Shown: one piece after another, positions 7,483 to 64,000 of the stretch
Position numbering within the stretch: the first letter of the stretch is position 1
Layout of the letters: each line of letters opens with the position of its first letter
NCBI GenBank assembly: GCA_016937695.1
Contig: JAFGWC010000069.1
Coordinates: 13,244-77,243, forward strand
From: Bacteroidales bacterium
GTDB taxonomy: Bacteria; Bacteroidota; Bacteroidia; Bacteroidales; NBLH01
Direction: 5' to 3'
Length of the DNA stretch: 64,000 bases
Notes under the pieces: generated by a model
Seen by the model: the letters and a program-made list of their open reading frames with translations, nothing else
What the model was told of the DNA's origin: nothing
The model's database searches: none
Position numbers and translations under genes: made by a program

Positions 7483-7642
7483 GTTATATCTTCTGTTATA
7501 AGGTTATTAATAAAATTTAAAATATAAAGTATAAATTTAAAAGCATTTTTACATTTTAAAATTAATTATACAATATAAATATTTAATTTTGTACGTTATT
7601 TGTAAAATAATAGTTCAAAATTATAGATAATTGATTTTAAAA

Positions 7643-43854: not shown

Positions 43855-46824
43855 TTAATTAAAAGATTGATAAAAAACACTTTGAATTTTCGAACGAATA
43901 TTTAATTCAACTAATTTGTTATTTTGGGCATTAGGGTATACTCTGTTTGAAAGGAAAATGTAAATAAAATCTTCTTTTGGGTCAACCCAGGCCATTGTTC
44001 CTGTAAAACCGGTATGTCCAAAACTATAACTTGAAGCTAAATTTGAAACAGGGCTTTTTTTTCTGCTTCCTGGTCTGTCAAAACCGAGAGCTCTTCTATT
44101 ATTGCTTTTGCTGTATGCTTTTTTTGTAAATAATGCAACAGTACTACTATTTAAATATCTTCTGCCGCCATATTCTCCTTTTTGAAGAAACATTTGCATT
44201 AATTTAGCTAAGTCGTTTGAATTTGAAAATAAGCCTGCATGTCCGCTAATACCGCCCATCATAGCAGCGCCATAATCATGTACATATCCTTGAATTAATT
44301 GTTTCCTAAATTTATTGTCTTTTTCCGTTGGGATTATTTTTTCTAAAGGATATTTGTTTAATGGATTATAAGTGGTTGATGTTAAGCCAATAGGCTTGTA
44401 AAAATTTTTATCTAAAAAATCAGTAAAGCTATATTTACTCTGATTTTCTATCATCTTATAAAATAAATAAAAACCTAAATCGCTATATCTGTATCCTGAT
44501 TTTGTTCGTAAAGGCGATTCTATAATTTGTTTATACATTGTGTCTGTATATGAGTTACTTATAAATATTTTTTCAGCAACTTTAAATTGATGTTTTTCAT
44601 CAGATTTTTGAGTGTAAATTTCGGGATTTAACTTATATGGAATTTTTGATTTTTTATCATATGTTCTTAAGTAAAAAGGTATCCAAGCTTTTAATTTTGC
44701 TTGGTGCGCCAGTATTTGTTTAATAATTATATCTTTTTTATTTGTTGAGTCTAATTCGCTTAAATAGTAAGATAGTTTTTTGTTTATGTCGATCTTTCCT
44801 TCATCAGATAATTTCATTATAGCCGGAATTGTAGCAGTTATTTTTGTAAGTGAAGCTATATCGTAAATATCGTCATTTTTTACTTTTAATTTTTTATCGT
44901 AAGTGTGATATCCAAAGGACTTCTGGTAAAAAACGGTCCCGTTTTTTATGGCCAAAATTTGACATCCGGGCATAACTTTTTCATCAATTGCACTTAATAC
45001 AATGCTGTCTATTTTTTTGAGCTTTAATTCGTTTATATTCAGCTCTATAGGCGGAGCATATTTAAGTCTGATTTTTTTATCAATTTCTCCCATTCTTGAT
45101 AGAAAGTATTTTCCTGCACTAACCGGAAGTTTGCCTTGAGCCGAAACGCCTCCAAAAATTAATTGAGCCGATAAATCTTGGCTTATATCTGTATCTTCGT
45201 AAGAAAGAATAATTGCATTAAATGAATTTGGTTTAAACATACTTAAAGTGTATGGACTCGCAAAAATATCTAAAATAACTTTTGTGTGTTTAGATAATTC
45301 ATGAGCAAACCAAACAGAAATTTTAGTTAATCCAAAGGATTTTGGTTGTCTGTTTGGATTATGAAAACCGGCAATTACTAAATCAAATTTTGATAATTTA
45401 TTTAATAAATAATTATAATCAGAAAGGCTGGCATTTTTATTTATAGAAAAGTGAGTAACATTATCATATAAACTTAAACTTTCTTGAAATTTGGTTTCTC
45501 CGCCATATCCTATTGAAACAGAGGCTATTCTAACGGAATCTAAATTTTTTATTGGAATTAAATCGTTATTGTTTTTAACTAAAGTTAAAGAATTTTCAAT
45601 TAATTTCCTGTTAATCAAATTAGCATTAGATGAGTTCAAATCTTGAGTTAGATTATCAATTTTAATTGGTTTGTAATTTTCTAAACCTACCCATTGTTTT
45701 GATTTTAAAACTTTTAAACAACGTCTGTCAATTTCTTCTTTACTTATTAAGCCGCTTTCAACAGCATTTTTTATGGCAGAAATGCTGGCATTTACATCAT
45801 CGGGCATTAATAAAATATCTACGCCTGCTAAAAATGCTTTTAAAGAAGTAGTTCCAGGCGAATTATAGTTGCTAACTCCTTTCATTCCAAGTGCATCTGT
45901 AAAAATCAAACCTTTAAATCCTAAATCATTTATTAATAAATCAGTAACAACATTTTTTGATAAACTTGAGGCACTAAATTCTGCAGAATCTAAAGCAGGA
46001 ATATGTAAGTGAGCAATCATTGTTGCTGCTAATCCTCTGTCAATTAAATACTTAAATGGAAAAAGTTCGATAGAATCTAATCTGTTAAAAGAGTGATTAA
46101 TAATGGGAAGCGTTTTATGAGAATCGCTGTCTGTATCTCCATGTCCGGGAAAATGTTTTGCTGTGGCGATTATTTTTTTTTCTTGCAATCCAAACATGTA
46201 TGCAAATCCTTTTTCGGCAACATTTACTCTGTCTTCACCAAATGAACGGCTGTTTATTACAGGATTTGCAGGATTATTATTAATGTCGATTACTGGTGCA
46301 AAGTTTACGTGAACTCCAAGTCTGTTGCACTGTTCGCCAATTTCAACTCCCAAATCGTAAAGCCATTTATTATTTTGTATTGCACCAAGCATCATTTGGA
46401 GCGGAAAATTTTGAACACTGTCAAGCCGCATTGAAAGTCCCCATTCTGCATCCATAGCAATAAGCAGAGGCGTTTTTGAAATTGATTGATAGTAGTTTGT
46501 TAAATTAGCTTGACGAACAGGCCCGCCTTGAAAAAAAATCAGGCCACCGATATTATGTTTTTGTATTAAATTTTCGATGTTTTTCTTATGTTCATCGCCT
46601 TTGTTTGAATATGCAGCAACCATTATAAGTTGTGCGATTTTATCATCAAGACTTAAACTTTGAAAAACAGAATCGACCCATTTATTTTTATATTTTATAA
46701 ACTCTGGATATCTGCTTTGGCTGAAATTTTCGACTTTAATTTTATTAGAACTAATATAGCTACTAGCAAATAAAATTATGATTGAAAAAATAAAAAATTT
46801 AAATATAAAATATAATAATTTCAT
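43855..46824 (-). CDS. fusion protein: GH3 beta-N-acetylhexosaminidase (NagZ-like) N-terminal domain plus class C/AmpH-like serine hydrolase (beta-lactamase fold) C-terminal domain
   Basis: 989 aa. The GH3 signature is KHFPGHGDTDSDSH. The C-terminal half carries SxxK (ASLTK) and YSDLGF (YxN/YSD-like) and ends in HTGFTGT. Confidence 0.85.
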   Translation of the reverse strand: MKLLYFIFKFFIFSIIILFASSYISSNKIKVENFSQSRYPEFIKYKNKWVDSVFQSLSLDDKIAQLIMVAAYSNKGDEHKKNIENLIQKHNIGGLIFFQGGPVRQANLTNYYQSISKTPLLIAMDAEWGLSMRLDSVQNFPLQMMLGAIQNNKWLYDLGVEIGEQCNRLGVHVNFAPVIDINNNPANPVINSRSFGEDRVNVAEKGFAYMFGLQEKKIIATAKHFPGHGDTDSDSHKTLPIINHSFNRLDSIELFPFKYLIDRGLAATMIAHLHIPALDSAEFSASSLSKNVVTDLLINDLGFKGLIFTDALGMKGVSNYNSPGTTSLKAFLAGVDILLMPDDVNASISAIKNAVESGLISKEEIDRRCLKVLKSKQWVGLENYKPIKIDNLTQDLNSSNANLINRKLIENSLTLVKNNNDLIPIKNLDSVRIASVSIGYGGETKFQESLSLYDNVTHFSINKNASLSDYNYLLNKLSKFDLVIAGFHNPNRQPKSFGLTKISVWFAHELSKHTKVILDIFASPYTLSMFKPNSFNAIILSYEDTDISQDLSAQLIFGGVSAQGKLPVSAGKYFLSRMGEIDKKIRLKYAPPIELNINELKLKKIDSIVLSAIDEKVMPGCQILAIKNGTVFYQKSFGYHTYDKKLKVKNDDIYDIASLTKITATIPAIMKLSDEGKIDINKKLSYYLSELDSTNKKDIIIKQILAHQAKLKAWIPFYLRTYDKKSKIPYKLNPEIYTQKSDEKHQFKVAEKIFISNSYTDTMYKQIIESPLRTKSGYRYSDLGFYLFYKMIENQSKYSFTDFLDKNFYKPIGLTSTTYNPLNKYPLEKIIPTEKDNKFRKQLIQGYVHDYGAAMMGGISGHAGLFSNSNDLAKLMQMFLQKGEYGGRRYLNSSTVALFTKKAYSKSNNRRALGFDRPGSRKKSPVSNLASSYSFGHTGFTGTMAWVDPKEDFIYIFLSNRVYPNAQNNKLVELNIRSKIQSVFYQSFN

Positions 46825-51897: not shown

Positions 51898-52869
51898 ATG
51901 CCATTAATAAATAGTCAAACTTACACAACACCGTTTTTGTTTCGGAATTATCATTTAAATACTATTTTTCCAGCTTTGTTTCGTAAAATTAAAGGAATTA
52001 AATTTCAAAGAATTAGAATAAATACGCCGGATGACGATTTTATTGACTTGGATTTTTCGAGGATAAAAAGTGAAAGCATTGCAATACTTATACACGGGCT
52101 TGAAGGAAATGCAGCCAAAGCTTATATGAAAGGATTAACTCGTATTTTGAATAAATCGGGAATGGACGTGGCAGCAATAAATCTACGTGGATGCAGTAAT
52201 CAAATCAATAAAAAATATTACTCATATCATAGCGGAAAAACTGAAGATTTAGACTCTGTAATTAATTATATATCAGATAATTATAATTATAATAAAATGT
52301 TTATTGCTGGTTTTAGTCTTGGTGGTAATTTAGCTTTGAAATATGTTGGTGAAAAAGCTGATAAAATTAATCCGATAATAAAAAAAGTAGTTGGAATTTC
52401 TGTACCGTGTGATTTAAAATCAACAGCATTTAAACTTAATAAAGCAGATAATTGGATTTATCAAAAACGATTTATTAACTCATTAAAGAAAAAGGCTCTG
52501 GAAAAAATTAAAATGTTTCCTGAATTTCAAAATCAAGAAAAAGAAATTAGAAAATCTAAAAATTTTATTCAATTTGATAATTTAGTTACAGCACCTGCTA
52601 ATGGATTTAACGATGCAGAAGATTATTGGATAAAAAATAGTTGTAAGCCGTTCTTAAATTCAATAAGAATTCCTGCATTATTGATTAATGCAATGGATGA
52701 TCCGTTTTTGACAGACGAAAGTTATCCGTTTGAAGAAGCAAAGCAAAATCCAAATTTCTATTTCGAGTTTCCAAAATATGGCGGACATGTTGGTTTTATA
52801 AACAGATGTAATTTTTCAAATGAATTATGGCATGAAAAAAGAATTTTGGAGTTTTTCTTAGATGTTTAA
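51898..52869 (+). CDS. alpha/beta hydrolase (YheT-like)
   Basis: 323 aa. HGLEG, the nucleophile elbow GFSLGG, and a C-terminal GGHVGF are present. Confidence 0.75.
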   Translation: MPLINSQTYTTPFLFRNYHLNTIFPALFRKIKGIKFQRIRINTPDDDFIDLDFSRIKSESIAILIHGLEGNAAKAYMKGLTRILNKSGMDVAAINLRGCSNQINKKYYSYHSGKTEDLDSVINYISDNYNYNKMFIAGFSLGGNLALKYVGEKADKINPIIKKVVGISVPCDLKSTAFKLNKADNWIYQKRFINSLKKKALEKIKMFPEFQNQEKEIRKSKNFIQFDNLVTAPANGFNDAEDYWIKNSCKPFLNSIRIPALLINAMDDPFLTDESYPFEEAKQNPNFYFEFPKYGGHVGFINRCNFSNELWHEKRILEFFLDV

Positions 52870-52968
52870 ATTTATCAAATTAAAAACCACATCTAAATTT
52901 TGATTTATTAATTGCTACATTTAAAATAACTATCTATTTTTGCTGCCTAAAATATTAAAAAAGAACAA

Positions 52969-54063
52969 ATGGCTTTAACTTGTGGAATTGTTGGATTAAC
53001 AAATATTGGAAAATCTACAATATTTAATTGTTTTTCAAATACAAAAGCAGAAATAACAAATTATACATACAGTACGTCCAAATCAAACATCGGAATGGTT
53101 AAAGTTCCGGATCCGCGTTTAAAAGAATTGGAAAAACTACAACCAACAGAAAAACTTGTTCAAGTAGTTGTTGATATTGTTGATATGCCCGGATTAGCCA
53201 AAGGAGCAAGCAAAGGCGAAGGAGTTGGTAATAAATTTTTAGGAGAATTAAGAAATACAGACGCTATTATACATGTTTTAAGATGTTTTGATGATGAAAA
53301 TCTTCCGCATGTTGAAGGCTCAATTGATCCTGTTCGAGATATCGAAATTTTAGATTTTGAATTGCAAGTTGCTGATTTAGAGTCTGTTGAAAAAAGAATT
53401 TCCAAAGTAGAAAAATTGATTAAAACTGGCGATAAAGAGGCTAAAAAAACAATCGAAGTTTTAAATAAGTATAAATCTCATATTGAGAATTTTCAAAATG
53501 CAAGAACACTTGAAGTAACAGAAGAAGAAAAAAGATTATTAGGCGATTTATTCTTATTAACCTCTAAACCAGTATTTTATGTGTGTAATGTAGATGATGA
53601 ATCTGCCTCATCAGGAAATAAATATACCGAAAAAGTAACAGAATATTTAAAAGACCAAAACACAGAAATAATTGTTATTGCAGCACAACTTGAAGCTGAA
53701 ATTGCAGAACTAGATTCAGAAGAGCAATTAGAATTTCTTAATGATATTGGATTATCAGAACCTGGTGTCGATAAACTTATTCGTTCTGCTTATAGCATCT
53801 TAAATTTAGATACCTTTTTTACTATCGGACCAAAAGAAATAAGAGCATGGACAATTAAACGCGGTGCAACAGCACCCGAAGCAGCCGGAGTTATTCATAG
53901 CGATTTGCAACGTGGCTTTATTCGAGCCGAAGTTATAAAATACAAGGATTTTATAGAATTGAAATCTGAACATGCTTGTAAAGAAGCCGGAAAATTACAT
54001 GTTGAAGGGAAAAAATATATTGTTGAAGATGGAGATCTTTTGAATATTAGATTTAATGTGTAA
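52969..54063 (+). CDS. ychF: redox-regulated ATPase YchF
   Basis: G1 motif GIVGLTNIGKST, DMPGL, a TGS-like C-terminus, and RAWTIKRGATAPEAAGVIHSDLQRGFIRAEV. Confidence 0.95.
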   Translation: MALTCGIVGLTNIGKSTIFNCFSNTKAEITNYTYSTSKSNIGMVKVPDPRLKELEKLQPTEKLVQVVVDIVDMPGLAKGASKGEGVGNKFLGELRNTDAIIHVLRCFDDENLPHVEGSIDPVRDIEILDFELQVADLESVEKRISKVEKLIKTGDKEAKKTIEVLNKYKSHIENFQNARTLEVTEEEKRLLGDLFLLTSKPVFYVCNVDDESASSGNKYTEKVTEYLKDQNTEIIVIAAQLEAEIAELDSEEQLEFLNDIGLSEPGVDKLIRSAYSILNLDTFFTIGPKEIRAWTIKRGATAPEAAGVIHSDLQRGFIRAEVIKYKDFIELKSEHACKEAGKLHVEGKKYIVEDGDLLNIRFNV

Positions 54064-54170
54064 TAAATATTGATTAAAAATCACGAGGCTTAAATTTATA
54101 ATAATTCTAAATAAAAATTTTCGACCTAAATAAATGAACTGAAAATCTTAAAAATATTGCTATATCTATT

Positions 54171-54222
54171 GTCTGATTGATGTTTAATTATGAATATAAA
54201 TAAATACTAATCAGACTTTTTT
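54171..54222 (+). terminator. possible terminator downstream of ychF
   Basis: 8-bp stem gtctgatt (54171-54178) / aatcagac (54209-54216), followed by tttttt. The 30-nt loop is long for an intrinsic terminator. Confidence 0.35.
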
Positions 54223-54337
54223 GTTTTAGAAAAGATGTAGAATTAAAACTGCTATTAAGCATGATTTATTTTTTTTCTTTTTTACTATATTTGGTTCAAA
54301 TATGAAATAAATCATTTATTAGATTAAAAAATATAAT

Positions 54338-55165
54338 ATGAATCGAATCATTAAAAAGGAATTTTTTTCAGATAAAGTTGCCAAAATAGTTGTGGAAGCT
54401 CCCGATATTGCCAAAAGCAGAAAAGCCGGGCATTTCGTAATTATCAGAGTTGATGAAAAAGGCGAAAGAATACCACTAACTATTGCAGGTGCTGATATTC
54501 AAAAAGGCACAATAGACCTTGTTGTACAGGAAGTTGGTGTTTCATCTTCAAAATTATTAAATTTAAATGAAGGCGATTATATTTTAGATGTAGTTGGTCC
54601 TTTGGGAAAAGCCACTCATATTGATAAAGTTGGAACAGTGCTAGCTGCCGGAGGAGGTGTAGGAATTGCACCTTTATTGCCAATCGTTGAAGCTTTTAAA
54701 GCTGCCGGAAATAGAGTTCTAACTGTGCTTGCTGCTCGAAATAAAGATCTAATTATATTAGAAGACGAAATGCGCATGCATTCAGATGAACTTATTGTAA
54801 TGACTGATGATGGTTCATATGGCAGAAAAGGTCTTGTAACTCAGGGAATGGAAGAATTTATTAATAAAGAAAAAATTGATGTCGCTGTTGCAATCGGTCC
54901 TGCAATTATGATGAAGTTTGCTGCTCTTACAACCAAAAAATATAATATCCATACACTTGCAAGTTTAAATACAATAATGGTTGATGGAACAGGAATGTGC
55001 GGTGCATGCAGAGTTACAGTTGGAGGAGAAACAAAATTTGTTTGTGTTGACGGACCTGAATTTGATGCTGATAAAATTGATTTTGATGAGATGTTGTATC
55101 GTTTAGGTGCTTATAAATCTCAAGAGGCCGAAGCATATCAAAAACATCTAGATTCAATAAATTAA
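54338..55165 (+). CDS. sulfide/dihydroorotate dehydrogenase-like FAD/NAD(P)-binding protein (NfnA / PyrK-like, [2Fe-2S])
   Basis: 275 aa. An FNR-like fold is indicated by GHFVIIR and AGGGVGIAP. The C-terminal cluster motif is GTGMCGACRV...FVCVDGP. Confidence 0.8.
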   Translation: MNRIIKKEFFSDKVAKIVVEAPDIAKSRKAGHFVIIRVDEKGERIPLTIAGADIQKGTIDLVVQEVGVSSSKLLNLNEGDYILDVVGPLGKATHIDKVGTVLAAGGGVGIAPLLPIVEAFKAAGNRVLTVLAARNKDLIILEDEMRMHSDELIVMTDDGSYGRKGLVTQGMEEFINKEKIDVAVAIGPAIMMKFAALTTKKYNIHTLASLNTIMVDGTGMCGACRVTVGGETKFVCVDGPEFDADKIDFDEMLYRLGAYKSQEAEAYQKHLDSIN

Positions 55166-55186
55166 TAAATAAGCAAAAAACTAAAC

Positions 55187-56671
55187 ATGGATAATATAGT
55201 AGACTATTTAAAAGAACAACGCAACCAAGAATGGCGTGATGAAATAAGAAAAAACATTAAGGTTAAGGATAGAACCCAAAAAATAAGGGTTTTGATGAAT
55301 GAAGAAGAACCAAATATCCGAAATAAAAATAATAACGAAGTAAATACAGGCTTAACAGAAGAACAAGCACTTTTAGAAGCACAAAGATGCATTGATTGCC
55401 CAACGCCTACTTGTATAACAGGCTGTCCTGTTGGGATAAATATTCCAAAATTTATTAAAAAAATTGAAATCGGCGACTTTCTTGGAGCAGCATCTGTGCT
55501 TAAAGAAACTAACACTTTGCCCGCTGTTTGTGGAAGAGTTTGTCCTCAAGAAAAGCAATGCGAAGCTCAGTGTTTTTATACATTAAAACTTAAAAAACCT
55601 CCAGTTGCAATTGGACACTTAGAAAGATTTGCAGCTGATTATGAGCAAAATAGCGGCAAAATGTCAATTCCGGAAGTAGCAACACAAAATAACATTAAAG
55701 TAGCAGCAATTGGAGCAGGACCGGCTAGCTTAGCATGGGCCGCTGATATGGCGCGTTTTGGTTATGATGTTACAGTTTTTGAAGCACTTCATGAAATTGG
55801 CGGAGTTTTAAAATACGGTATTCCTGAGTTTCGACTTCCAAATTCAGTTGTTGATATCGAAATTGAAAGCATGAAAAAAATGGGTGTGAAATTTATTACT
55901 AATTTTATTGTTGGAAAAACTGCTTCTTTCGATGATTTAAGAGAAAGAGGATTTGAAGCATTTTTTGTTGGAAGTGGTGCAGGTTTACCTAGATTTATGA
56001 ATATTCCTGGCGAAAATTATATTGGTATTTTTTCTTCAAATGAATACTTAACAAGAGTTAATTTGATGAATGCCGCAAATGATGAATACGATACTCCTGT
56101 TATTAGTGGAAAAAATGTCGCAGTTATTGGAGGCGGAAATACTGCAATGGATTCTGTTAGAACAGCAAAAAGGCTTGGTGCCGATAAGGCAATGATAATC
56201 TATAGACGTTCAATTACTGAAATGCCAGCCAGAATTGAAGAAGTAAAACATGCACAAGAAGAAGGAATAGAATTTCTTAATCTAAACAATCCACTTGAAT
56301 ATTATGCTGATGAAAATGGAAGAGTTAATAGAATGAAAGTTCAAAAAATGGAGCTTGGCGATCCTGATGAAAGCGGTAGAAGAAGTCCTGTTCCAATTGT
56401 AGGCTCTGAATATTATATCGATGTAGATACTGTTATCGTAAGTGTAGGTGTTTCGCCAAACCCTTTAATACCTTCAAGCTTAAAAGATTTAGACGTTACT
56501 CGTTGGGGCACAATTGTGGTTAATACTGAAACTATGCAATCATCAATTCCAGATATTTTTGCAGGTGGTGATATAGTAAGAGGCGGCGCAACAGTTATTC
56601 TTGCAATGGGAGATGGACGAAAAGCAGCAAGTGGAATGCATAAATATATTAAATCAAAAAAAGAAATTTAA
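55187..56671 (+). CDS. NADPH-dependent glutamate synthase small-subunit homologue (GltD/NfnB-like)
   Basis: Two N-terminal [4Fe-4S] motifs (CIDCPTPTCITGCP, CGRVCPQEKQCEAQC). Two dinucleotide-binding motifs (VAAIGAGPASL, VAVIGGGNTAMD). C-terminal FAGGD. Confidence 0.85.
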   Translation: MDNIVDYLKEQRNQEWRDEIRKNIKVKDRTQKIRVLMNEEEPNIRNKNNNEVNTGLTEEQALLEAQRCIDCPTPTCITGCPVGINIPKFIKKIEIGDFLGAASVLKETNTLPAVCGRVCPQEKQCEAQCFYTLKLKKPPVAIGHLERFAADYEQNSGKMSIPEVATQNNIKVAAIGAGPASLAWAADMARFGYDVTVFEALHEIGGVLKYGIPEFRLPNSVVDIEIESMKKMGVKFITNFIVGKTASFDDLRERGFEAFFVGSGAGLPRFMNIPGENYIGIFSSNEYLTRVNLMNAANDEYDTPVISGKNVAVIGGGNTAMDSVRTAKRLGADKAMIIYRRSITEMPARIEEVKHAQEEGIEFLNLNNPLEYYADENGRVNRMKVQKMELGDPDESGRRSPVPIVGSEYYIDVDTVIVSVGVSPNPLIPSSLKDLDVTRWGTIVVNTETMQSSIPDIFAGGDIVRGGATVILAMGDGRKAASGMHKYIKSKKEI

Positions 56672-56788
56672 AAAAGATGAATATTTTTATATAGTTTTAT
56701 TAACTTTATTCTTTAATTTATATGCTTATATAACTATATTGAGCGATAATTTCTCAACAAATAAATATCATTATTAATATTAATAATT

Positions 56789-57778
56789 ATGGCAAATTTA
56801 ACAACAAAATATCTTGGATTGGAACTCAGAAACCCTTTAATTGTTGGTAGTTCGGGTTTAACAAATTCAGTTGAGGATATAAAAGACCTTGAAAGAAAAG
56901 GTGCCGGAGCAATTGTATTAAAATCAATTTTTGAAGAAGAAATAATGCTCGAATTTAAAAGCGTTATAAAGGAAGTTGAAGCTGATGAAAACAATCTGGA
57001 ATATTACGATTATTTCGATTACAAAATAAAAGCAGACAATATAAAAAGATATATAAAGTTAATAGAAGACGTAAAAAAAGAGGTTAATATACCAGTAATA
57101 GCAAGTATTAACTGTGTAACTGCTCAAGAATGGACTTTTTTTGCAAAAAAGATACAAGATGCTGGTGCCGATGCAATTGAATTAAATGCATTTTTTTTGC
57201 CAACAGATTGTAGCAAAACATCTCAAGAAAACGAAAAAATTTATTTTGATTTAATTAATTCGGTAAGTAAACTTGTAACCATACCTGTTTCATTGAAAAT
57301 TAGTTACTATTTTTCTAATCTGGCCAGAATGATTAAAACCCTTTCTGAAACAACAGTTTCAGGTATTGTTTTATTTAATCGGTTTTATAGTCCCGATTTT
57401 GATATCGATAATAAAAAAGTGATATCAACACATGTTTTAAGTTCAGAAAATGATTTGCCAATCTCACTTCGTTGGGTTGCAATTATGGCAGAACGAATAA
57501 ATTGTGATATTAGTGCTTCTACAGGTGTTCACGATGGAAAAGCTTTAATTAAACAATTATTGGCAGGTGCTGATTCTGTTCAGGTTGTTTCTGCACTATA
57601 TAAAAATGGCACAAGCCATATCGGAACTATGTTAAAGGAATTGGAAGTTTGGATGGATAAAAATGGATATAAAACAATAGCCGATTTTAAAGGTAGTATG
57701 AGTCAAGCTAAAAGTAATAATCCTGCTGCATTTGAACGTGTGCAATTTATGAAATATTTTGGTGAAATGAAACTGTAA
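56789..57778 (+). CDS. dihydroorotate dehydrogenase-like TIM-barrel flavoprotein lacking the canonical catalytic loop
   Basis: It has a PyrD-like N-terminus (YLGLELRNPLIVGSSGLT) and FMN-site-like elements (GADAIELN, SASTGVHDGKALIKQLLAGADSVQVVSA). At the position of the class-1 ELN(L/I)SCPN loop it reads ELNAFFLPTDCS. Confidence 0.75.
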   Translation: MANLTTKYLGLELRNPLIVGSSGLTNSVEDIKDLERKGAGAIVLKSIFEEEIMLEFKSVIKEVEADENNLEYYDYFDYKIKADNIKRYIKLIEDVKKEVNIPVIASINCVTAQEWTFFAKKIQDAGADAIELNAFFLPTDCSKTSQENEKIYFDLINSVSKLVTIPVSLKISYYFSNLARMIKTLSETTVSGIVLFNRFYSPDFDIDNKKVISTHVLSSENDLPISLRWVAIMAERINCDISASTGVHDGKALIKQLLAGADSVQVVSALYKNGTSHIGTMLKELEVWMDKNGYKTIADFKGSMSQAKSNNPAAFERVQFMKYFGEMKL

Positions 57779-57860
57779 TTTTTATGCTCTTTTGCTAATT
57801 GAATTGATTTTAAATAAGAAAAAACATGTTTTTTAACATAGATGGATATGTGAATATGTT

Positions 57861-57868
57861 TACTTTTG
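57861..57868 (+). promoter_or_regulatory. candidate -7 box (TACTTTTG) for the Mrp-type cluster
   Basis: Matches TAnnTTTG and ends 24 nt upstream of the first ATG of the MrpE-like gene (57892). Confidence 0.35.
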
Positions 57869-57891
57869 TGCTGAAATTTTAAAAACCATAA

Positions 57892-58404
57892 ATGATGAAT
57901 TCTAAAATATCTGTTATTAGTAAATTGTTTTTTACATGGTTGATTGTTTTTGTTTTATGGTTAGCGTTTACTACATCAATAGAAATATATGAAGTATTAA
58001 CCGGATTGTTCATTAGTTTTATTATTAGTTTATTTACTTTTAAAAGCTTTACGTCTAGAGGTTTAAAAGGACTTTCACCAATAAAATTAATTTATGTGAT
58101 TAAATACATATTTGTTTTTTTAATTGCACTAGTAAAGGCTAATTTTCATGTTGCTAAAATAGTTTTATCACCTAGTTTGCCTATCAATCCGGGCATTGTT
58201 GAATTCGAATCTAAACTCGATTCCGATTTTGCCAAAATGATTCTTGCAAATAGCATAACTTTAACACCAGGAACTCTTAGTGTAGATGTAATAGGAAATA
58301 GATTTTACATACATTGGCTCGAGGTAAAAGATAGTGATTCTGAAGTTGCATTTAATGAAATAGCAAAACAATTTGAAGATGTTTTATTAAAAATTTACTC
58401 ATAA
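57892..58404 (+). CDS. Mrp/Mnh subunit E-like membrane protein (MbhA/MbxA equivalent)
   Basis: 170 aa. The ANSITLTPGTLSVD motif is typical of MnhE/MrpE. Confidence 0.85.
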   Translation: MMNSKISVISKLFFTWLIVFVLWLAFTTSIEIYEVLTGLFISFIISLFTFKSFTSRGLKGLSPIKLIYVIKYIFVFLIALVKANFHVAKIVLSPSLPINPGIVEFESKLDSDFAKMILANSITLTPGTLSVDVIGNRFYIHWLEVKDSDSEVAFNEIAKQFEDVLLKIYS

Positions 58405-58414
58405 TAAAAATAAT

Positions 58415-58672
58415 ATGTCTTATTTTTTTATAATAATAATTTCAATAATAGCTGTCGGAGCTATATTAGCATTTGTTAGATTTGTAAAAGGACCAACTGC
58501 TGCAGATAGAGTAGTTGCTTTAGATACAATCTCATTTATGGCAATTGCATTAATGGTTTTTTTAGGATTTGTTTTAGAACGATTTATATATATTGATGTG
58601 TCTTTGGTTTATGCCGTTCTGGGATTTGTCGGTGTAATTACAATCGCAAGATATTTAGAAGGAGGTATATAA
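58415..58672 (+). CDS. Mrp/Mnh subunit F-like membrane protein (MbhB/MbxB equivalent)
   Basis: 85 aa with 3 TM segments and a GPTAADRVVALDT motif. Confidence 0.85.
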   Translation: MSYFFIIIISIIAVGAILAFVRFVKGPTAADRVVALDTISFMAIALMVFLGFVLERFIYIDVSLVYAVLGFVGVITIARYLEGGI

Positions 58673-59049
58673 TGATAGTAATTGAATATTTAGCTTATTT
58701 TCTGATAACCTTAGGAGCAGTTTTCTTGTTTCTAGGAGCGCTTGGTATTTTCAGAATGCCAGATATATATACTCGAATTCAGGCAGGAACAAAATCAAGT
58801 ACTTTAGGAGCAATGAGCCTTGTTTTAGGAACAGGTCTTTTAGGATTTGTTTCTTTTACGCCAGGTTATCCTTGGCTTATTAAAACTATAATAATTGTGA
58901 TTTTTGTTGCGATAGCTAACCCGTTAAGTTCTCATGCTCTTGCAAGAGGAGCCTACAAAGATAAAATTGCACCTTTTACAAAAGAGAATATTGATGCTTA
59001 CCAAGAAGTAGAAAAAAATATTGAAGAAGAAATGGAGGATGCCAAATGA
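58672..59049 (+). CDS. Mrp/Mnh subunit G-like membrane protein (MbhC/MbxC equivalent)
   Basis: Contains the GALGIFRMPDIYTRIQAGTKSSTLG motif. Its start overlaps the preceding stop by 1 nt. Confidence 0.85.
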   Translation: MIVIEYLAYFLITLGAVFLFLGALGIFRMPDIYTRIQAGTKSSTLGAMSLVLGTGLLGFVSFTPGYPWLIKTIIIVIFVAIANPLSSHALARGAYKDKIAPFTKENIDAYQEVEKNIEEEMEDAK

Positions 59050-59300
59050 GTAACACATTAATTGTTATTACAATAATTTCACTATTCTTTTTGATTGTTG
59101 CAGGAATTTATGCTGTGATAAAAAAAGATTTATTGCAAGCAGCAATTGCTACAGGACTTATAAGCCTTGTTTTGTCTATTTTATTTTACATCTTACAAGC
59201 ACCAGATGTAGCTTTAACAGAAGCTGCCATTGGAATAGCTCTTAGCACAATAATATTTGTTTTGGCTATAAGAAATACAAAAAGATTCGAAGATAATTAA
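59046..59300 (+). CDS. DUF4040 / MbhD-like small membrane subunit
   Basis: 84 aa with the APDVALTEAAIG motif, corresponding to the MrpA C-terminal / MbhD-type domain. It overlaps the previous gene by 4 nt. Confidence 0.7.
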   Translation: MSNTLIVITIISLFFLIVAGIYAVIKKDLLQAAIATGLISLVLSILFYILQAPDVALTEAAIGIALSTIIFVLAIRNTKRFEDN

Positions 59301-59310
59301 AAATAAACTG

Positions 59311-60018
59311 ATGAAGAAACTATTAATATTCGGATTACTTATATTTATTGGAGTTGAAATTTTGGATGTTTTATCCGAAGTTCCTTTTGGAGAAGATAGA
59401 ATGAAAGTTTCGAATTTTTATCTGGAAAAATCACCTGAAGTACTTAAAGTTTCAAACGTTGTAACGGCTATTGTCGTTAATTTCAGAGGTTTTGATACTT
59501 TGGGAGAAGTAACAGTTCTATTTCTGGCTGCTGCTGGTATTGGAAGTATATTATATCGAAGACGTTCAGTTCACACTGAATTAAATCCGAAAAGGACATC
59601 AACTGAGGCATCTAACATTGTTCAGGCAGGTGCAAAAGTGCTTTTCCCTCTAATTATTTTGTTGGGTGCTTACATTTTTGTCCATGGTCATTTAACACCT
59701 GGAGGTGGTTTTCAGGGCGGGGCAATTATCGCAACCGGATTCTTACTAATGCTTATTTCGTACAGGAAATTTTTTGTTAAACATTCTGGAGTTACCTGGA
59801 TTGAATCCATAGCAGGTATTGTATTTGTCGGTTTAGGTTTGTTGGGAATGGTTTATGGTGGTACTTTTTTAGAAAATTTCTTGCCTGCAGGGGAATTGAA
59901 TAGTTTAATTAGCGGAGGAATAATTGGAATTATATACATAGCTGTTGGATTTAAAGTAGGCGCTGAATTAACAGGGGTATTAGATACCTTGTTAAATATC
60001 AGTCAGGATGAAGAATAA
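59311..60018 (+). CDS. MnhB/MrpB-domain membrane subunit (MbhE/F, MbxF equivalent)
   Basis: Contains the VTAIVVNFRGFDTLGEVTVL motif of the MnhB domain. 235 aa, multi-TM. Confidence 0.75.
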   Translation: MKKLLIFGLLIFIGVEILDVLSEVPFGEDRMKVSNFYLEKSPEVLKVSNVVTAIVVNFRGFDTLGEVTVLFLAAAGIGSILYRRRSVHTELNPKRTSTEASNIVQAGAKVLFPLIILLGAYIFVHGHLTPGGGFQGGAIIATGFLLMLISYRKFFVKHSGVTWIESIAGIVFVGLGLLGMVYGGTFLENFLPAGELNSLISGGIIGIIYIAVGFKVGAELTGVLDTLLNISQDEE

Positions 60019-60068
60019 ATTATACAATATATATTAATAATAATTAGCATTTTAAAAAACATTCAAAA

Positions 60069-60431
60069 ATGCAAGACTTTTTAACTTACGGAATATATGG
60101 TACAGCAATTTTTTTAATGCTTCTTGGAGTATACGCTGTGCTTGTAAAACGGAATCTGATTAAAATTGTGATAGGATTATCTATTTTAGATTCGGGTTTA
60201 CATTTGTTGTTTGTAGCGATAGGTTTTATAAGTGGTGGAACAGCACCAATTTTTTCACCAATGGCTATTGAAAGTGCAAATAAAATGGTTGATCCTGTCC
60301 CTCAAGCTTTAGTTTTAACAGCCATAGTAATTGGATTTGGCGTTACAGCTGTTGCACTTGCACTAGTAATTCGCCTTTACAGACATCATAATACAATTAA
60401 CATTGACGAAATTAAAAACTTAAAATGGTAA
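60069..60431 (+). CDS. MrpC / NuoK-like membrane subunit (MbhG/MbxG equivalent)
   Basis: 120 aa with 3 TM segments and a NuoK-like pattern (LIKIVIGLSILDSGLHLLFV...QALVLTAIVIGFGVTAVALAL). Confidence 0.8.
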   Translation: MQDFLTYGIYGTAIFLMLLGVYAVLVKRNLIKIVIGLSILDSGLHLLFVAIGFISGGTAPIFSPMAIESANKMVDPVPQALVLTAIVIGFGVTAVALALVIRLYRHHNTINIDEIKNLKW

Positions 60432-61921
60432 TAGCAGATCCTATTTATTACATAGTTCTTCCCTTGTTAACAGCTTTTTTGTTACCTCTTTTTGGGAAAT
60501 TATATAAACCTTTAATTGGTATAATCCCTGGCTTTGTTTTTCTTTTCTTAGCTTATATGTCAGTAATTCTAATGATTGATATTAGGCCGGATAATCCAAT
60601 TATTACAAAAATAGCAGGATGGACTCCGCCTTTTGGAATTAATTTGGTTTTTAGCTCTTTTAGCGGATTTATAGCATCTCTAATTAGTATAATGGGATTT
60701 TTAATTTGGGCATATAGCTATAAATTTAAAAAAGTTGGTTTTGACGATTCTCTAAAATATTTCATTTTGTTATTGCTTGTAGTTACTGGTTCTATTGGAA
60801 TAGTTTTAACAGGTGATATTTTTAATTTATTTGTATTTCTTGAAATTACTGGTATTTCTGCTTATGCTTTAACAGCGCTTTATAGAGGAAGAGATGGAGC
60901 TGAAGCTGCATTTAAATTTCTTTTAATTGGTGCGTTTGCTTCGTCGATGATTTTATTGGCTATAATTCTGCTTTATACACAAGTAGGAACTTTAAATATG
61001 GCAGAAATTTCTGTAAGAATGCATGAAGTTGATTTAAAAATCAAAGTTTTGATTTTTATTCTCTTTTTTGTTGGTTTTGGTATTGAAGCTGAAATGTTTC
61101 CTTTAAATGGTTGGGTTCCTGATGCTTACTCTCAAGCTCCAGGTCCAATTGCGGCTGTTTTTGCAGGCATGGTAGCTAAAGCTGGAATATATGCTCTTGT
61201 TCGAATTATATATTTAATGTTTGATCTTGAAGGAGCCTTTCACTTATTACTAATAATGGGAGTAATTACCATGATTATTGCCGAAGTTGTTGCTTTAAGA
61301 CAAGAAGCTTTGAGACGTATGCTTGCATATTCAAGTATCGGGCAAATGGGCTTGATAATGATTGCATTTAGTTTTAATACAGAACAAGGTGTTTTTGCTG
61401 CAATATTTTTGATGTTTAATCATGCTATAATTAAATCATTATTGTTTTTAACTACTAGCTTTTTAGTATATAATACAAAAACAAAATTAATTTCAGATTT
61501 AGATGGTTTTGGTAAAAAAATGCCACTTGTTTCTTTGCTTTTTGGATTAGGAGCATTTGCTATCGTTGGCTTACCACCATTTTCAGGTTTTTGGAGTAAA
61601 TTATACGTATTAATTGCTGCTGCAAATCAACATATGGAAGTTATTATTGCTTTAATTCTTTCTGTTAGTGTTGTAGAAATTATTTACTATTTTAAAGTAA
61701 TCAGTAGATTGTATTTCAGAAAAGCAAGCGAAGAAATACCAATTCAAAAACCATCATTAAACAGCTCAATTGTTATGATAGTTCTAGGTTTGATTATTAT
61801 TAGCGTTGGTGTTTATCCTGATTTAATTACTGGCCTAATTGAGAATGCAACAACTTCATTATTGAATAAGGATTTATATATAGAGAAAATATTACCTGGT
61901 TTAGCAGAAATTATTAATTAA
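60425..61921 (+). CDS. proton-conducting antiporter-like subunit (MrpD/NuoM-N family; MbxH equivalent)
   Basis: 498 aa. Family motifs are present: FLEITGISAY, WVPDAYSQAPGPIAAVFAGMVAKAGIYA and AYSSIGQMG. It overlaps the previous gene by 7 nt. Confidence 0.85.
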   Translation: MVIADPIYYIVLPLLTAFLLPLFGKLYKPLIGIIPGFVFLFLAYMSVILMIDIRPDNPIITKIAGWTPPFGINLVFSSFSGFIASLISIMGFLIWAYSYKFKKVGFDDSLKYFILLLLVVTGSIGIVLTGDIFNLFVFLEITGISAYALTALYRGRDGAEAAFKFLLIGAFASSMILLAIILLYTQVGTLNMAEISVRMHEVDLKIKVLIFILFFVGFGIEAEMFPLNGWVPDAYSQAPGPIAAVFAGMVAKAGIYALVRIIYLMFDLEGAFHLLLIMGVITMIIAEVVALRQEALRRMLAYSSIGQMGLIMIAFSFNTEQGVFAAIFLMFNHAIIKSLLFLTTSFLVYNTKTKLISDLDGFGKKMPLVSLLFGLGAFAIVGLPPFSGFWSKLYVLIAAANQHMEVIIALILSVSVVEIIYYFKVISRLYFRKASEEIPIQKPSLNSSIVMIVLGLIIISVGVYPDLITGLIENATTSLLNKDLYIEKILPGLAEIIN

Positions 61922-61945
61922 CAAAATATCTAATTTATTTAGAAA

Positions 61946-63790
61946 ATGATGAATAGCTTGTTTTTACTTTTATTTATATTATTTGGTTCAGCGATACTTT
62001 CATATATCGGACATCGTATTTCCGAAACTTTAGGTAATATTATTGTGGTTGTTGGAGCTTTTTCCGCGTCTATCTGGTTTTTTGTAGGCTTCGAAACACC
62101 TGCCGAATTTTCATATAAAATTGCTGATTTTGATGCTTTGTGGAGTTTTTCATCTTATAGCTGGATATTTGCAGCATTAGTATCAATATTGTCACCATTA
62201 GCATTATTATATTCTACATCATATATGAAAGGAAAAGAAAGATTAGGAACTTTCTATTTTAATTTTTTCCTTAGTATACTTGGAATGATTGGAATAACAA
62301 TGAGCCAAGATTTTATTTCTCTTTTTATTTTCTGGGAAATAATGACATGGTCATCTTATCTTATTGTTATTTATCTTGGTAAAGATGTAGAAAAAGTAGG
62401 TATAAAATATATGATATTTAGTGCAATAGGAGCATATGCATTACTTATGGGTATTGTTCTTATAAACAGAGAAGTAGGTAGCCTTTTAATAGAAGATGCA
62501 TTTGCTTATTTCCCTCAAATTCAATTCTCAACTCAATTACTTATAGGCATATTACTTTTAATAGGGTTTTCTATAAAAAGTGCAATGATGCCATTACACG
62601 TTTGGGCTCCAGGTGCTTATTCAAATTCACCAATGTCATATACTGCTGTTTTTTCAGGCGCTTTATCTAAAATGGGCATTTATGGATTAGGGCTTGTATT
62701 TATAAGACTTTTAAGTTCTGGTGAATTTACTTTAATAAATGAAATTTTTGCATGGGCTGGTGCGATAACTACTTTAATGGCTACTTTTTATGCTATTATT
62801 CAAGATGATGCGAAAAAACTTCTTGCATATTCATCAATCGGACAATTAGGATATATTATTGTTGGGGTTGCAATTGGTACTGAATTGTCAATTATGGCTG
62901 CGATTTATTTGGCTATTCTTCATGCTGCTTTTAAAGGAAACCTTTTCATGGCAATTGGTGCTGTTGAAAAACAAACAGGATCAACTGACATGACTTTAGT
63001 TACTGGACTTATAAGGAAAATGCCACTAACATTTTTCTCTACACTTGTATCTATAATTGCCTTAGCTGCTGTTCCTCCTTTAGGCGGATTTGTTGGAAAA
63101 TGGATGTTGTATCAATCGTTATTGGCTTCAGAACATTTTTTTTTAATTATTGTTATTTTTACAGCAAGCACGGCAGCATTTTTATATTCTTTCAAAATTC
63201 TTTATTCACTATTTCTTGGCCAAGAAGAGCCTGAATTTAAAAATATTAAAGAAGCTCCACTTCCAATGTTAATTCCTATGATTTTGTTATCATTATTTTT
63301 AATTGTAACAGGAACATTCCCGGGTATTTTATTCGAACCAATTGCTAATGGAATGAAATATTTAGGTTTTAATGATGTAAATTGGAATATGTCATTATTA
63401 GTTAATGCTTGGGGCGATGAAGTTAATTTACAACATGTTTCAATGTATATTGGAACAATTTTTATAGTTGCATTTATTTTTATATCCTTAAAAAACAGAA
63501 AAAGAACTAGATATGTTACAACTAAAGATATAAGTACATCCGGTGAAATTCCACTTCCTCATGAAAATCTATCATTTAAACTTAATTTTTACAAACCTTT
63601 TGAAAGAGCTATAAGCCCTGTAATGAAAAAAACAATGGACTCAATTTATGATGAAATTGGTAATGGCTTAAATGCATTATTTCAGTTTATTAGATATATT
63701 TATTCTGGAAACGGACAAGGTTATGCATTATATGTTATAATATTTTTTGTTCTATTATTATTACTTAAAAATCAAATTTTCGGATTGTAA
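61946..63790 (+). CDS. second proton-conducting antiporter-like subunit (MrpD/NuoL-M family with C-terminal extension; MbxH' equivalent)
   Basis: 614 aa with FWEIMTWSSY, HVWAPGAYSNSPMSYTAVFSGALSKMGIYG and AYSSIGQLGY. Confidence 0.8.
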   Translation: MMNSLFLLLFILFGSAILSYIGHRISETLGNIIVVVGAFSASIWFFVGFETPAEFSYKIADFDALWSFSSYSWIFAALVSILSPLALLYSTSYMKGKERLGTFYFNFFLSILGMIGITMSQDFISLFIFWEIMTWSSYLIVIYLGKDVEKVGIKYMIFSAIGAYALLMGIVLINREVGSLLIEDAFAYFPQIQFSTQLLIGILLLIGFSIKSAMMPLHVWAPGAYSNSPMSYTAVFSGALSKMGIYGLGLVFIRLLSSGEFTLINEIFAWAGAITTLMATFYAIIQDDAKKLLAYSSIGQLGYIIVGVAIGTELSIMAAIYLAILHAAFKGNLFMAIGAVEKQTGSTDMTLVTGLIRKMPLTFFSTLVSIIALAAVPPLGGFVGKWMLYQSLLASEHFFLIIVIFTASTAAFLYSFKILYSLFLGQEEPEFKNIKEAPLPMLIPMILLSLFLIVTGTFPGILFEPIANGMKYLGFNDVNWNMSLLVNAWGDEVNLQHVSMYIGTIFIVAFIFISLKNRKRTRYVTTKDISTSGEIPLPHENLSFKLNFYKPFERAISPVMKKTMDSIYDEIGNGLNALFQFIRYIYSGNGQGYALYVIIFFVLLLLLKNQIFGL

Positions 63791-63839
63791 ATTTGATGAT
63801 TTTAAAAAGAATTTCGATTAAAAGAAAAACATATATCAA

Positions 63840-64000
63840 ATGAATTGGTCTCTTATATTAGGAATAACAATAACCATAATAACAGCATTCACAGTCGGAA
63901 TGTTTTATGGAGGTATTAGTAGAAAAGTTACAGCTCGAATTCAGAATAGAGTAGGGCCGCCTATTTGGCAAAATTTTTTAGATGTTCTAAAATTATATAG
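63840..64000 (+). CDS. NuoH / HycD / MbhM-like membrane subunit, N-terminal fragment (runs off the right edge)
   Basis: Manual translation from the ATG at 63840 gives MNWSLILGITITIITAFTVGMFYGGISRKVTARIQNRVGPPIWQNFLDVLKLY. The RKxxARxQxRxGP...Q.F.D..KL signature belongs to the complex-I subunit-1 family. Confidence 0.7.
   Translation, partial: MNWSLILGITITIITAFTVGMFYGGISRKVTARIQNRVGPPIWQNFLDVLKLY

Follow-up and report, generated by a model that had tools for sequence, protein, structure and literature searches.

Gene content and organization of the locus

The 64,000-nucleotide stretch of Bacteroidales DNA analysed here (positions 13,244 to 77,243 of contig JAFGWC010000069.1, assembly GCA_016937695.1; hereafter the window) ends inside a predicted 13-gene operon for a bacterial respiratory complex of the type described as membrane-bound sulfane reductase (MBS, formerly Mbx) in Pyrococcus furiosus. 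Positions 57892-64000 of the forward strand had been described in the original prediction, which was made from the sequence alone, as nine tightly packed genes running to the window edge. The list of open reading frames (ORFs) gave eight complete ORFs and one cut by the window end at exactly these positions. Adjacent ORFs overlap by 1 nt (58672), 4 nt (59046-59049) and 7 nt (60425-60431), and the remaining gaps are 10-50 nt. Competing long ORFs were looked for in the ORF list on the opposite strand of 57892-64000 and none was found. The family label proposed earlier for each gene at the window edge was borne out by Pfam, with E-values from 1e-18 to 6e-66 (Table 1). The MrpE-like gene, which opens the cluster, keeps this first position in more than 40 related loci. 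The H'-like protein additionally gave a full-length match to NCBIfam PRK08668 (1e-141).

Genes past position 64000 were read from a public contig which encodes the same 614-aa protein (JAFGNL010000098.1 of GCA_016927025.1, referred to as L001). L001 and the window are identical at all 12,055 shared bases, and L001 is therefore a legitimate source for reading past the window end. The downstream genes are given in window-equivalent coordinates, which equal the L001 coordinates + 51945. NuoB-, NuoC-, NuoD- and NuoI-like genes had been expected at this place and were found directly after the NuoH-like gene. The resulting order A-B-C-D-E-G-H-H'-M-J-K-L-N, with 13 genes on one strand, is the mbx/MBS order.

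Beyond the last gene, which encodes a fusion protein, no ORF with a match was present in the 486 bases remaining on L001. The public contigs with these exact proteins all stop about 350-490 bp beyond the fusion gene, hinting at a repeat or a coverage gap at that point. The fusion protein is also recorded on a larger contig (up to 82,881 bp). The window itself is unbroken where the NCBI metagenome-assembled genome (MAG) GCA_016927025.1 is split; its positions 12896-15298 correspond to JAFGNL010000226.1 and 51946-64000 to JAFGNL010000098.1.

Table 1. Genes and signals of the MBX/MBS-type cluster and of its upstream neighbourhood. Coordinates above 64000 are window-equivalent.
Feature	Coordinates	Strand	Evidence
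MbxA/MbsA-like, MrpE family, 170 aa, cluster gene 1 of 13	57892..58404	+	Pfam MNHE 5e-41
MbxB-like, MrpF family, 85 aa	58415..58672	+	Pfam MrpF_PhaF 1.2e-18
MbxC-like, MrpG family, 125 aa, 1-nt overlap with MbxB-like	58672..59049	+	Pfam PhaG_MnhG_YufB 5.6e-23
MbxD-like, MbhD/DUF4040, 84 aa, 4-nt overlap with MbxC-like	59046..59300	+	Pfam MbhD 3.6e-20
MbxE-like, 235 aa, fused MbhE + MnhB(MbhF)	59311..60018	+	Pfam MbhE 2e-11, MnhB 1.5e-22
MbxG-like, NuoK/MrpC family, 120 aa	60069..60431	+	Pfam Oxidored_q2 5.8e-27
MbxH-like antiporter-type, 498 aa, 7-nt overlap with MbxG-like	60425..61921	+	Pfam Proton_antipo_M 6e-66
MbxH'-like antiporter-type, C-terminal extension, 614 aa	61946..63790	+	Pfam Proton_antipo_M 4e-59
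MbxM-like (NuoH/MbsM) gene start, ATG 63840, cut by window end	63840..64000	+	ORF
MbxM-like full gene, 302 aa	L001 11895-12803	+	Pfam NADHdh 6.8e-53
J/NuoB-like, 181 aa	64822-65367	+	Pfam Oxidored_q6 5e-24
K/NuoC-like, 191 aa	65436-66011	+	Pfam Complex1_30kDa 2e-26
L/NuoD-like, 367 aa	66132-67235	+	Pfam Complex1_49kDa 9e-81
N-NfnB/GltD fusion, 595 aa, last gene	67365-69152	+	Pfam Fer4 dicluster, Fer4_20, Pyr_redox_2
Terminator-like hairpin, 42 nt past fusion-gene stop	69194-69211		
NfnA/SudB-like, 275 aa	54338-55165	+	NCBIfam PRK06222 2.4e-119
NfnB/SudA-like, 494 aa	55187-56671	+	NCBIfam TIGR01316 4.6e-167, above cut-off
Dihydroorotate dehydrogenase (DHOD)-like FMN-barrel protein, 329 aa, 113 nt upstream of cluster	56789..57778	+	NCBIfam PRK07565 1.8e-127

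Relation of the subunits to solved structures

For each subunit compared with solved structures (L, J, H, H', M, E and the N domain), the best match was its counterpart in P. furiosus MBS (PDB 6U8Y). The L subunit matched 6u8y_L at 2.9e-112, compared with 3.9e-74 for Nqo4 and 1.1e-38 for MbhL of the membrane-bound hydrogenase (MBH); in bit scores, MbsL reached 379 and MbhL 137. J matched 6u8y_J at 1.6e-67 and MbhJ at 2.8e-32. For both L and J, the MBS chains outscored every complex I chain by 100 bits or more. Among the membrane subunits, H aligned over its full length with 6u8y_H (MbsH) at 1.3e-105 against 5e-58 for MbhH and 2e-52 for MrpD. H' aligned with 6u8y_X (MbsH', 618 aa) at 3.1e-84 over residues 7-605 versus 7-614, taking in the C-terminal part which bears helix HL in MBS, while its match to MbhH was 1.8e-52. 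M gave 4.7e-48 with 6u8y_M and 2.5e-22 with MbhM (6cfw_M). The E subunit matched 6u8y_E, which has the same fused form (235 aa), at 8.8e-56, compared with 3e-15 and 8e-10 for the separate chains 6cfw_F and 6cfw_E. The N domain of the fusion protein matched 6u8y_N at 3.6e-20.

The complex shares with P. furiosus MBS the same 13 subunits in identical gene order, a pair of antiporter-like subunits (H, and H' bearing a C-terminal extension), the fused E, an L with two vestigial cysteines equivalent to C85 and C385, and a J with three cluster cysteines. It differs from MBS in that N is joined to an NfnB/GltD-type module of about 445 aa with two extra [4Fe-4S] motifs, in that the non-ligand Cys25 of MbsJ is Gly, and in that its host is a mesophilic bacterium whereas the MBS host is a hyperthermophilic archaeon. 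MBH (group 4d, PDB 6CFW) is similar in having an Mrp-derived membrane arm and a NuoH/B/C/D/I-like module, but MBH itself possesses four Ni-Fe cysteines, a proximal cluster with four Cys ligands, only one H, and E and F as individual subunits. With complex I (NDH-1) the present complex has in common a homologous Q-module (NuoB/C/D/H/I), antiporter-like subunits, and a pyridine-nucleotide dehydrogenase attached at the distal end of the Fe-S chain. Its NAD(P)H module is, however, an NfnB/GltD-type FAD protein instead of NuoEFG (FMN), its membrane arm is Mrp-type with MrpE/F/G-like subunits, and NuoA-, E-, F-, G- and J-like genes are absent from the 13-gene block. Unlike in the Mrp antiporter, what corresponds to MrpA is distributed over H', D and E. 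As judged from these sequence comparisons, the complex is of the MBS/MBX type and is neither a [NiFe]-hydrogenase, a plain Mrp antiporter nor a complex I.

Conservation of ligand positions in L and J

MbsL retains two of the four Ni-Fe cysteines (C85, C385) and is without equivalents of the quinone ligands H38 and Y87 of Nqo4 (PMC7684303). In the L subunit of the present cluster, Cys66 and Cys361 align with MbsL C85 and C385, inside the common motifs RICVPEPD and CPPEIER, and both are invariant in an alignment (A1) of L, eight relatives and MbsL. The C-terminal motif is CPPE, with Glu in place of the second Cys. In the N-terminal motif the second Cys (RIC) alone is conserved, the additional Cys63 being variable. 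One cysteine per pair is thus left, and of the outcomes foreseen in the original prediction for the Ni-Fe ligand pairs of the NuoD-like subunit, it is the degenerate, 'Mbx/MBS-like' one that was obtained. The positions of Nqo4 H38 and Y87 are occupied by Thr and Val.

The proximal [4Fe-4S] cluster of MbsJ has three Cys ligands (C28, C93, C123), while C25 is a dispensable non-ligand (PMC7684303). The J subunit possesses three cysteines in total (C32, C97, C127), which align with MbsJ C28, C93 and C123, and the position of C25 is Gly. The tandem Cys pair of NuoB is absent from J. Among 73 bacterial homologues, nearly all likewise have Gly at the C25 position, the motif being almost always YGTGCG, and Cys persists there only in the lineages nearest to the archaeal type. 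This pattern fits the structure and the mutant data of MBS (PMC7684303). Judged at the level of sequence, the proximal [4Fe-4S] cluster predicted for J can have three Cys ligands only, which would leave one open iron. The loss of C25 across the family independently agrees with the three-Cys catalytic cluster proposed for MBS.

The fused N subunit

The 595-aa product of the last gene is composed of two parts. Residues of about 8-116 represent an MbsN/NuoI-type 2x[4Fe-4S] domain, and both of its CxxCxxCxxxC motifs were seen in the translation. Residues of about 150-595 represent an NfnB/SudA/GltD-type module (Fer4_20 1e-28, Pyr_redox_2 8e-30). In MBS, N is a small separate protein on which ferredoxin docks; in the present cluster, the N domain is the first 116 residues of the fusion. 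The protein matched NCBIfam PRK13984 'putative oxidoreductase' over its full length at 1e-193, with a score under the equivalog cut-off of the model. The best PDB match of the C-terminal part was 5jca_L (7.8e-90), followed by 4ylf_B and 5vj7_A; these NfnB-type matches ranged from 1e-86 to 1e-90, compared with 1e-59 for GltD proper. With the NfnB-like protein whose gene lies 11 kb upstream in the window, the C-terminal part shares 37% identity. The two proteins share two Rossmann motifs and a YRR sequence after the second Rossmann strand. In this family, YRR at this place suggests that the fusion module prefers NADPH.

The Fer4_20 and Pyr_redox_2 domains are those of the NfnB/SudA/GltD family, to which belong the large subunit of NADH-dependent ferredoxin:NADP+ oxidoreductase and the small one of glutamate synthase. 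The module differs from the family in being covalently joined to the NuoI-like domain of a membrane complex, within an operon without an NfnA-like partner. As the fusion adds FAD and two [4Fe-4S] motifs, a chain of FAD and five clusters is expected. The complex had been predicted to be ferredoxin-oxidising, which is probably too simple a description, given the NAD(P)H flavoprotein of the NfnB/GltD type to which N is joined.

Distribution, variants and recurrent neighbours

Genomes were scanned with two L-subunit motifs, one genome per species, and 590 of the 600 listed matches were confirmed as relatives, which is a lower bound. At least 590 species genomes from many bacterial phyla therefore carry the same type of complex. 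The original prediction had regarded it as a complex best known from Thermococcales, here in a Bacteroidota-like genome; its presence was confirmed, but it is no rarity in Bacteroidota. The entire 13-gene block was also found in the complete genome of Ca. Sulfidibacterium hydrothermale, where it is followed by unrelated efflux genes and no rubrerythrin.

The best 80 loci were parsed by script, and the N gene could be judged in 76 of them. The N-NfnB/GltD fusion is present in 60 of these 76 informative loci, belonging to many phyla: Bacteroidales, Melioribacter and Chlorobiota, Marinimicrobia, Fermentibacteria, Spirochaetes, Cloacimonadota, Aminicenantes, Acidobacteria, WOR-3, Hydrothermota, Calditrichaceae, Desulfurellales and Gammaproteobacteria. 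The fused protein alone is represented by more than 100 90%-identity clusters at 69% identity or more. A free N subunit was observed in the other 16 loci, which come from Campylobacterota, Chromatiaceae, one Synergistota locus and two DHVE2 archaea. The Campylobacterota/Chromatiaceae variant has a free N of about 130 aa and carries the MrpE-like gene at the end, in the order B-C-D-E-G-H-H'-M-J-K-L-N-A (loci L033-L038, L040, L041, L045, L047, L050, L052 and L054). In 18 loci from many phyla outside the Fibrobacterota-Chlorobiota-Bacteroidota (FCB) group, H and H' form one ORF of about 1,045 aa (for example L043, L061, L067, L081 and L085).

Several genes recur beside the cluster. A gene for a Rex-type, redox-sensing regulator adjoins it in six loci, upstream in L043, L044, L046, L049 and L059 and downstream in L032; in Fermentibacteria, Hydrothermota and other genomes it is situated 0-8 nt upstream of the MrpE-like gene. 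Its product has the Pfam architecture Put_DNA-bind_N + CoA_binding, which is taken to be that of Rex. NfnAB-like pairs adjoin the cluster in five loci counting the present one (L026, L056, L061 and L062 being the others), at differing positions. The Rex and Nfn neighbours point to a link of the complex with the pyridine-nucleotide redox state. A rubrerythrin/ferritin-like gene of about 150 aa follows the fusion gene in 11 loci (L017, L055, L058, L062, L064, L066, L069, L074, L077, L084 and L085). In public annotation the subunits are labelled 'Na+/H+ antiporter subunit', 'NADH-quinone oxidoreductase subunit' (B/C/D/H) and 'FAD-dependent oxidoreductase'.

Bacterial operons of this kind are on record. 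In the 'mbx-like' operons reported from Thermotoga and proteobacteria by Degli Esposti (2015), a GltD-related flavoprotein takes the place of NuoI, and a rubrerythrin gene is often the last one (PMC4758237). The MBX of T. maritima was called a 13-subunit homologue of MBS, and its mbxA was induced 4.4-fold by S0 (PMC9431562). In work on Mesotoga, Mbx was treated as a ferredoxin:NADP+ oxidoreductase. In some MAG studies, Mrp-linked clusters of Cloacimonadota and related phyla, possibly of the same kind as the present one, are labelled 'group 4g' hydrogenases (PMC8542988). The literature searched yielded neither biochemical nor structural work on a bacterial member, and the cluster is not mentioned in the genome and omics papers on Melioribacter roseus. 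The present locus resembles the Thermotoga operons in the GltD-related flavoprotein at the NuoI position, a likeness drawn from the published description, as those sequences lie outside the 80 loci. It differs from them in that rubrerythrin, which is frequent and not obligatory there, was not seen in the 486 bases after the fusion gene, and in that FCB-group members often carry a DHOD-like gene beside the cluster instead. The type of complex is already known, and the present locus adds one member to it.

Proposed function of the complex

The nine membrane subunits (A, B, C, D, E, G, H, H' and M) would build an ion-translocating arm of Mrp descent that contains two antiporter-like pumps. J, K and L, seated on M, would make up a coupling and catalytic chamber without a Ni-Fe site or the quinone-ligating His/Tyr. 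NAD(P)H would reduce the FAD of the NfnB/GltD-type module, from which electrons would pass singly via the two NfnB-type and two N-type [4Fe-4S] clusters to the three-Cys cluster of J. The open iron of this cluster is the proposed catalytic centre for sulfane-sulfur reduction, as in MBS. Polysulfide or another sulfane-sulfur compound would be reduced in the hydrophobic J/L/M chamber, and its reduction would power the membrane arm, where H+ would be pumped and Na+ exchanged for H+. A second donor may be ferredoxin, docking as before on the N domain. By analogy with MBS, we propose with moderate confidence that the complex couples ion pumping to sulfane-sulfur (polysulfide) reduction fed by NAD(P)H, and possibly also by ferredoxin. 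Gene content, the one-to-one similarity to MBS chains, the ligand patterns and the widely conserved fusion are shown by the sequences; which way the electrons flow, which pyridine nucleotide serves and what the acceptor is are inferred.

A circumstantial link of the complex to sulfur is provided by the S0 induction of T. maritima mbxA (PMC9431562) together with the polysulfide-rich sediment of the source habitat (PMC9040765). The assembly accession of L001 falls within the range deposited for MAGs from Zodletone spring, which is anoxic, sulfidic and very rich in soluble polysulfide (PMC9040765).

Several points weigh against NAD(P)H-fed sulfane reduction. The acceptor is deduced from similarity to MBS alone, and this holds for all bacterial members. 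The suggested NADPH preference comes from one short motif. No sulfur-handling genes (NSR, rhodanese, Psr) are present beside the operon within the window. Electron transfer from NAD(P)H (-320 mV) to polysulfide (about -260 to -270 mV) yields about 10-12 kJ per 2 e-. For comparison, 12 kJ is quoted for MBH and 42 kJ for ferredoxin-driven MBS (PMC8165549). The low yield, with both pumps H and H' nevertheless kept, means that ferredoxin may be the real donor or a co-donor. The GltD-related subunit has also been read earlier as a site of electron output to NAD(P)+, not of input (PMC4758237).

If NAD(P)H-fed sulfane reduction is correct, Fe-S-catalysed sulfur reduction of the MBS type would not be peculiar to hyperthermophilic archaea; it would represent a common energy-conserving route in mesophilic anaerobic bacteria, the carriers including Bacteroidales, Ignavibacteria, Marinimicrobia, Cloacimonadota, Spirochaetes, Gammaproteobacteria and others. 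The standard annotation labels hide the complex, and inventories of the sulfur cycle which count only psrABC and sulfhydrogenases, such as the study of the source habitat (PMC9040765), would miss it. The complex is also a natural example of a complex-I-like core that gained a pyridine-nucleotide dehydrogenase module other than NuoEFG, and as such it bears on the origin of the N-module of complex I. The complex is put forward as a widespread, mis-annotated candidate for NAD(P)H-linked, Fe-S-catalysed sulfur respiration in mesophilic bacteria.

Alternative functions

The same fusion could work in the reverse sense. The complex would then be an ion-translocating ferredoxin:NAD(P)+ oxidoreductase, Rnf-like in function, with reduced ferredoxin docking on the N domain and electrons leaving to NAD(P)+ by way of the NfnB/GltD module. 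Mbx was originally supposed to have this role, which was also proposed for the Thermotoga-type operon (PMC4758237) and in the Mesotoga model. The potential drop from ferredoxin to NAD(P)+ would pay for the two pumps H and H', and the Rex and Nfn links would suit the balancing of ferredoxin and NAD(P)H pools. However, a path from ferredoxin through N to the flavin would leave out J and L. In all solved relatives coupling arises from chemistry in the J/L/M chamber (PMC7684303), and strict conservation is seen both for the three ligands of the J cluster and for the motifs of L that line the chamber. P. furiosus MBS, moreover, passes ferredoxin electrons to polysulfide and not to NADP+ (PMC7684303). 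We consider this function unlikely.

It is also conceivable, with a still lower probability, that the NfnB-type flavin bifurcates or confurcates electrons, the complex being a membrane-bound, ion-pumping bifurcating enzyme. NfnB is the subunit of Nfn which bears the electron-bifurcating FAD. Electrons of NADPH would be split at the flavin. One branch would run over the clusters of N and J and end at the site of sulfane reduction; the other would serve ferredoxin, or else the DHOD-like FMN protein encoded next to the cluster, as a side arm resembling dihydropyrimidine dehydrogenase. Such an enzyme would be the first relative of complex I with flavin-based bifurcation built in.

Somewhat more doubtful again is an NAD(P)H:menaquinone oxidoreductase, that is, a slimmed complex I in which the NfnB-like module stands for NuoEFG and the Mrp-like arm for NuoL/M/N/A/J. 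It would agree with the public annotation of subunits as NADH-quinone oxidoreductase B/C/D/H, with the score of the NCBIfam NuoD model NF004739, which is above its cut-off (431 versus 360 bits), and with the description of the MBS chamber as wide enough for hydrophobic substrates (PMC7684303). The Thr and Val at the quinone head-group ligand positions H38 and Y87 of Nqo4, the missing tandem Cys pair of NuoB with a cluster of three Cys only, and the lead of 100 bits or more of the MBS chains over all complex I chains argue against quinone reduction.

An H2-evolving group-4 [NiFe]-hydrogenase, either Mbh-like or of the 'group 4g, Mrp-linked' kind, is very improbable. The overall architecture resembles Mbh, and Mrp-linked group 4g was assigned to Cloacimonadota and related phyla in MAG papers (PMC8542988). 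A hydrogenase is, however, ruled out at the ligand level, as one Cys per CxxC pair is left throughout the family; the MbhL match is far poorer than that of MbsL (137 versus 379 bits), and no hyp maturation genes were found among the annotated genes of the window. A conventional MrpA-G cation/proton antiporter lying beside an unrelated nuo-type operon is hardly credible and is ruled out by conserved synteny and by subunit-level orthology to MBS, for although the first six genes belong to Mrp Pfam families, a MrpA of about 800 aa is lacking with its parts split as in MBS (H', D, E), the redox genes stand in the same 13-gene block, which is conserved with short gaps in dozens of phyla, and the C-terminal extension of H' matches MbsH'.

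Genes and signals upstream of the cluster

The cluster is preceded in the window by genes for an NfnA/SudB-like, an NfnB/SudA-like and a DHOD-like protein on the same strand (Table 1). The NfnA/NfnB-like pair may be functionally linked to the cluster. The DHOD-like protein is remote from true DHODs (1e-11) and has Leu at the position of the catalytic Cys130 of L. lactis DHODA; from these features it is probably not a DHOD. In nine Bacteroidales-type loci a DHOD-like gene precedes the cluster at a gap of 9-95 nt, and in two Melioribacter-type loci it comes directly after the cluster, giving 11 loci in total, all from the FCB group. The family was also surveyed in 80 metagenome loci. There it lies beside an Mbx-like cluster in only 6-7 of the 80, after an NfnA-NfnB-like pair, as in the window, in about 11, and after an 840-aa GltD-like gene in three, the remainder being other contexts or short contigs. 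The common denominator of these contexts is a GltD/NfnB-type module. Such an association recalls the PreT/PreA pairing of dihydropyrimidine dehydrogenase. A role of the DHOD-like protein as a dedicated 14th subunit was considered and demoted, since most family members in metagenomes lie elsewhere. It is possibly an accessory partner of GltD-type modules. The NfnA-NfnB-DHOD-like triad (54338-57778) suggests an uncharacterised three-component flavoenzyme akin to dihydropyrimidine dehydrogenase.

A Bacteroidetes-type -7 motif, TAnnTTTG, was found at 57861-57868, 24-31 nt before the start of the MrpE-like gene. This motif match alone weakly suggests that the cluster may also be transcribed independently of the genes before it. 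Upstream of it, in the 113-nt spacer between the DHOD-like and MrpE-like genes, there is a perfect AT-rich palindrome, AAAAAACATGTTTTTT, at 57819-57834, which could be an operator or a weak terminator. A scan for sigma-70 promoters gave 73 sites against 82 expected and was uninformative, as anticipated for Bacteroidota. An Rfam scan of the window gave no matches.

Other genes of the window

The rest of the window carries genes of the type IX secretion system (T9SS) and ordinary housekeeping genes. A gene for a 1,266-aa peptidase C25 of the gingipain family (3682-7482, - strand) lies between the T9SS genes PorV (1081-2370, - strand) and PorP/SprF (7631-8629), and this set is consistent with a Bacteroidales origin. 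The segment 12408-18454 contains a MarR-type regulator gene followed by a fatty-acid beta-oxidation set, which consists of an 800-aa fused 3-hydroxyacyl-CoA dehydrogenase/enoyl-CoA hydratase, a thiolase and a 593-aa acyl-CoA dehydrogenase. At 43855-46824 on the - strand, a 989-aa protein combines glycoside hydrolase family 3 and beta-lactamase-fold domains.

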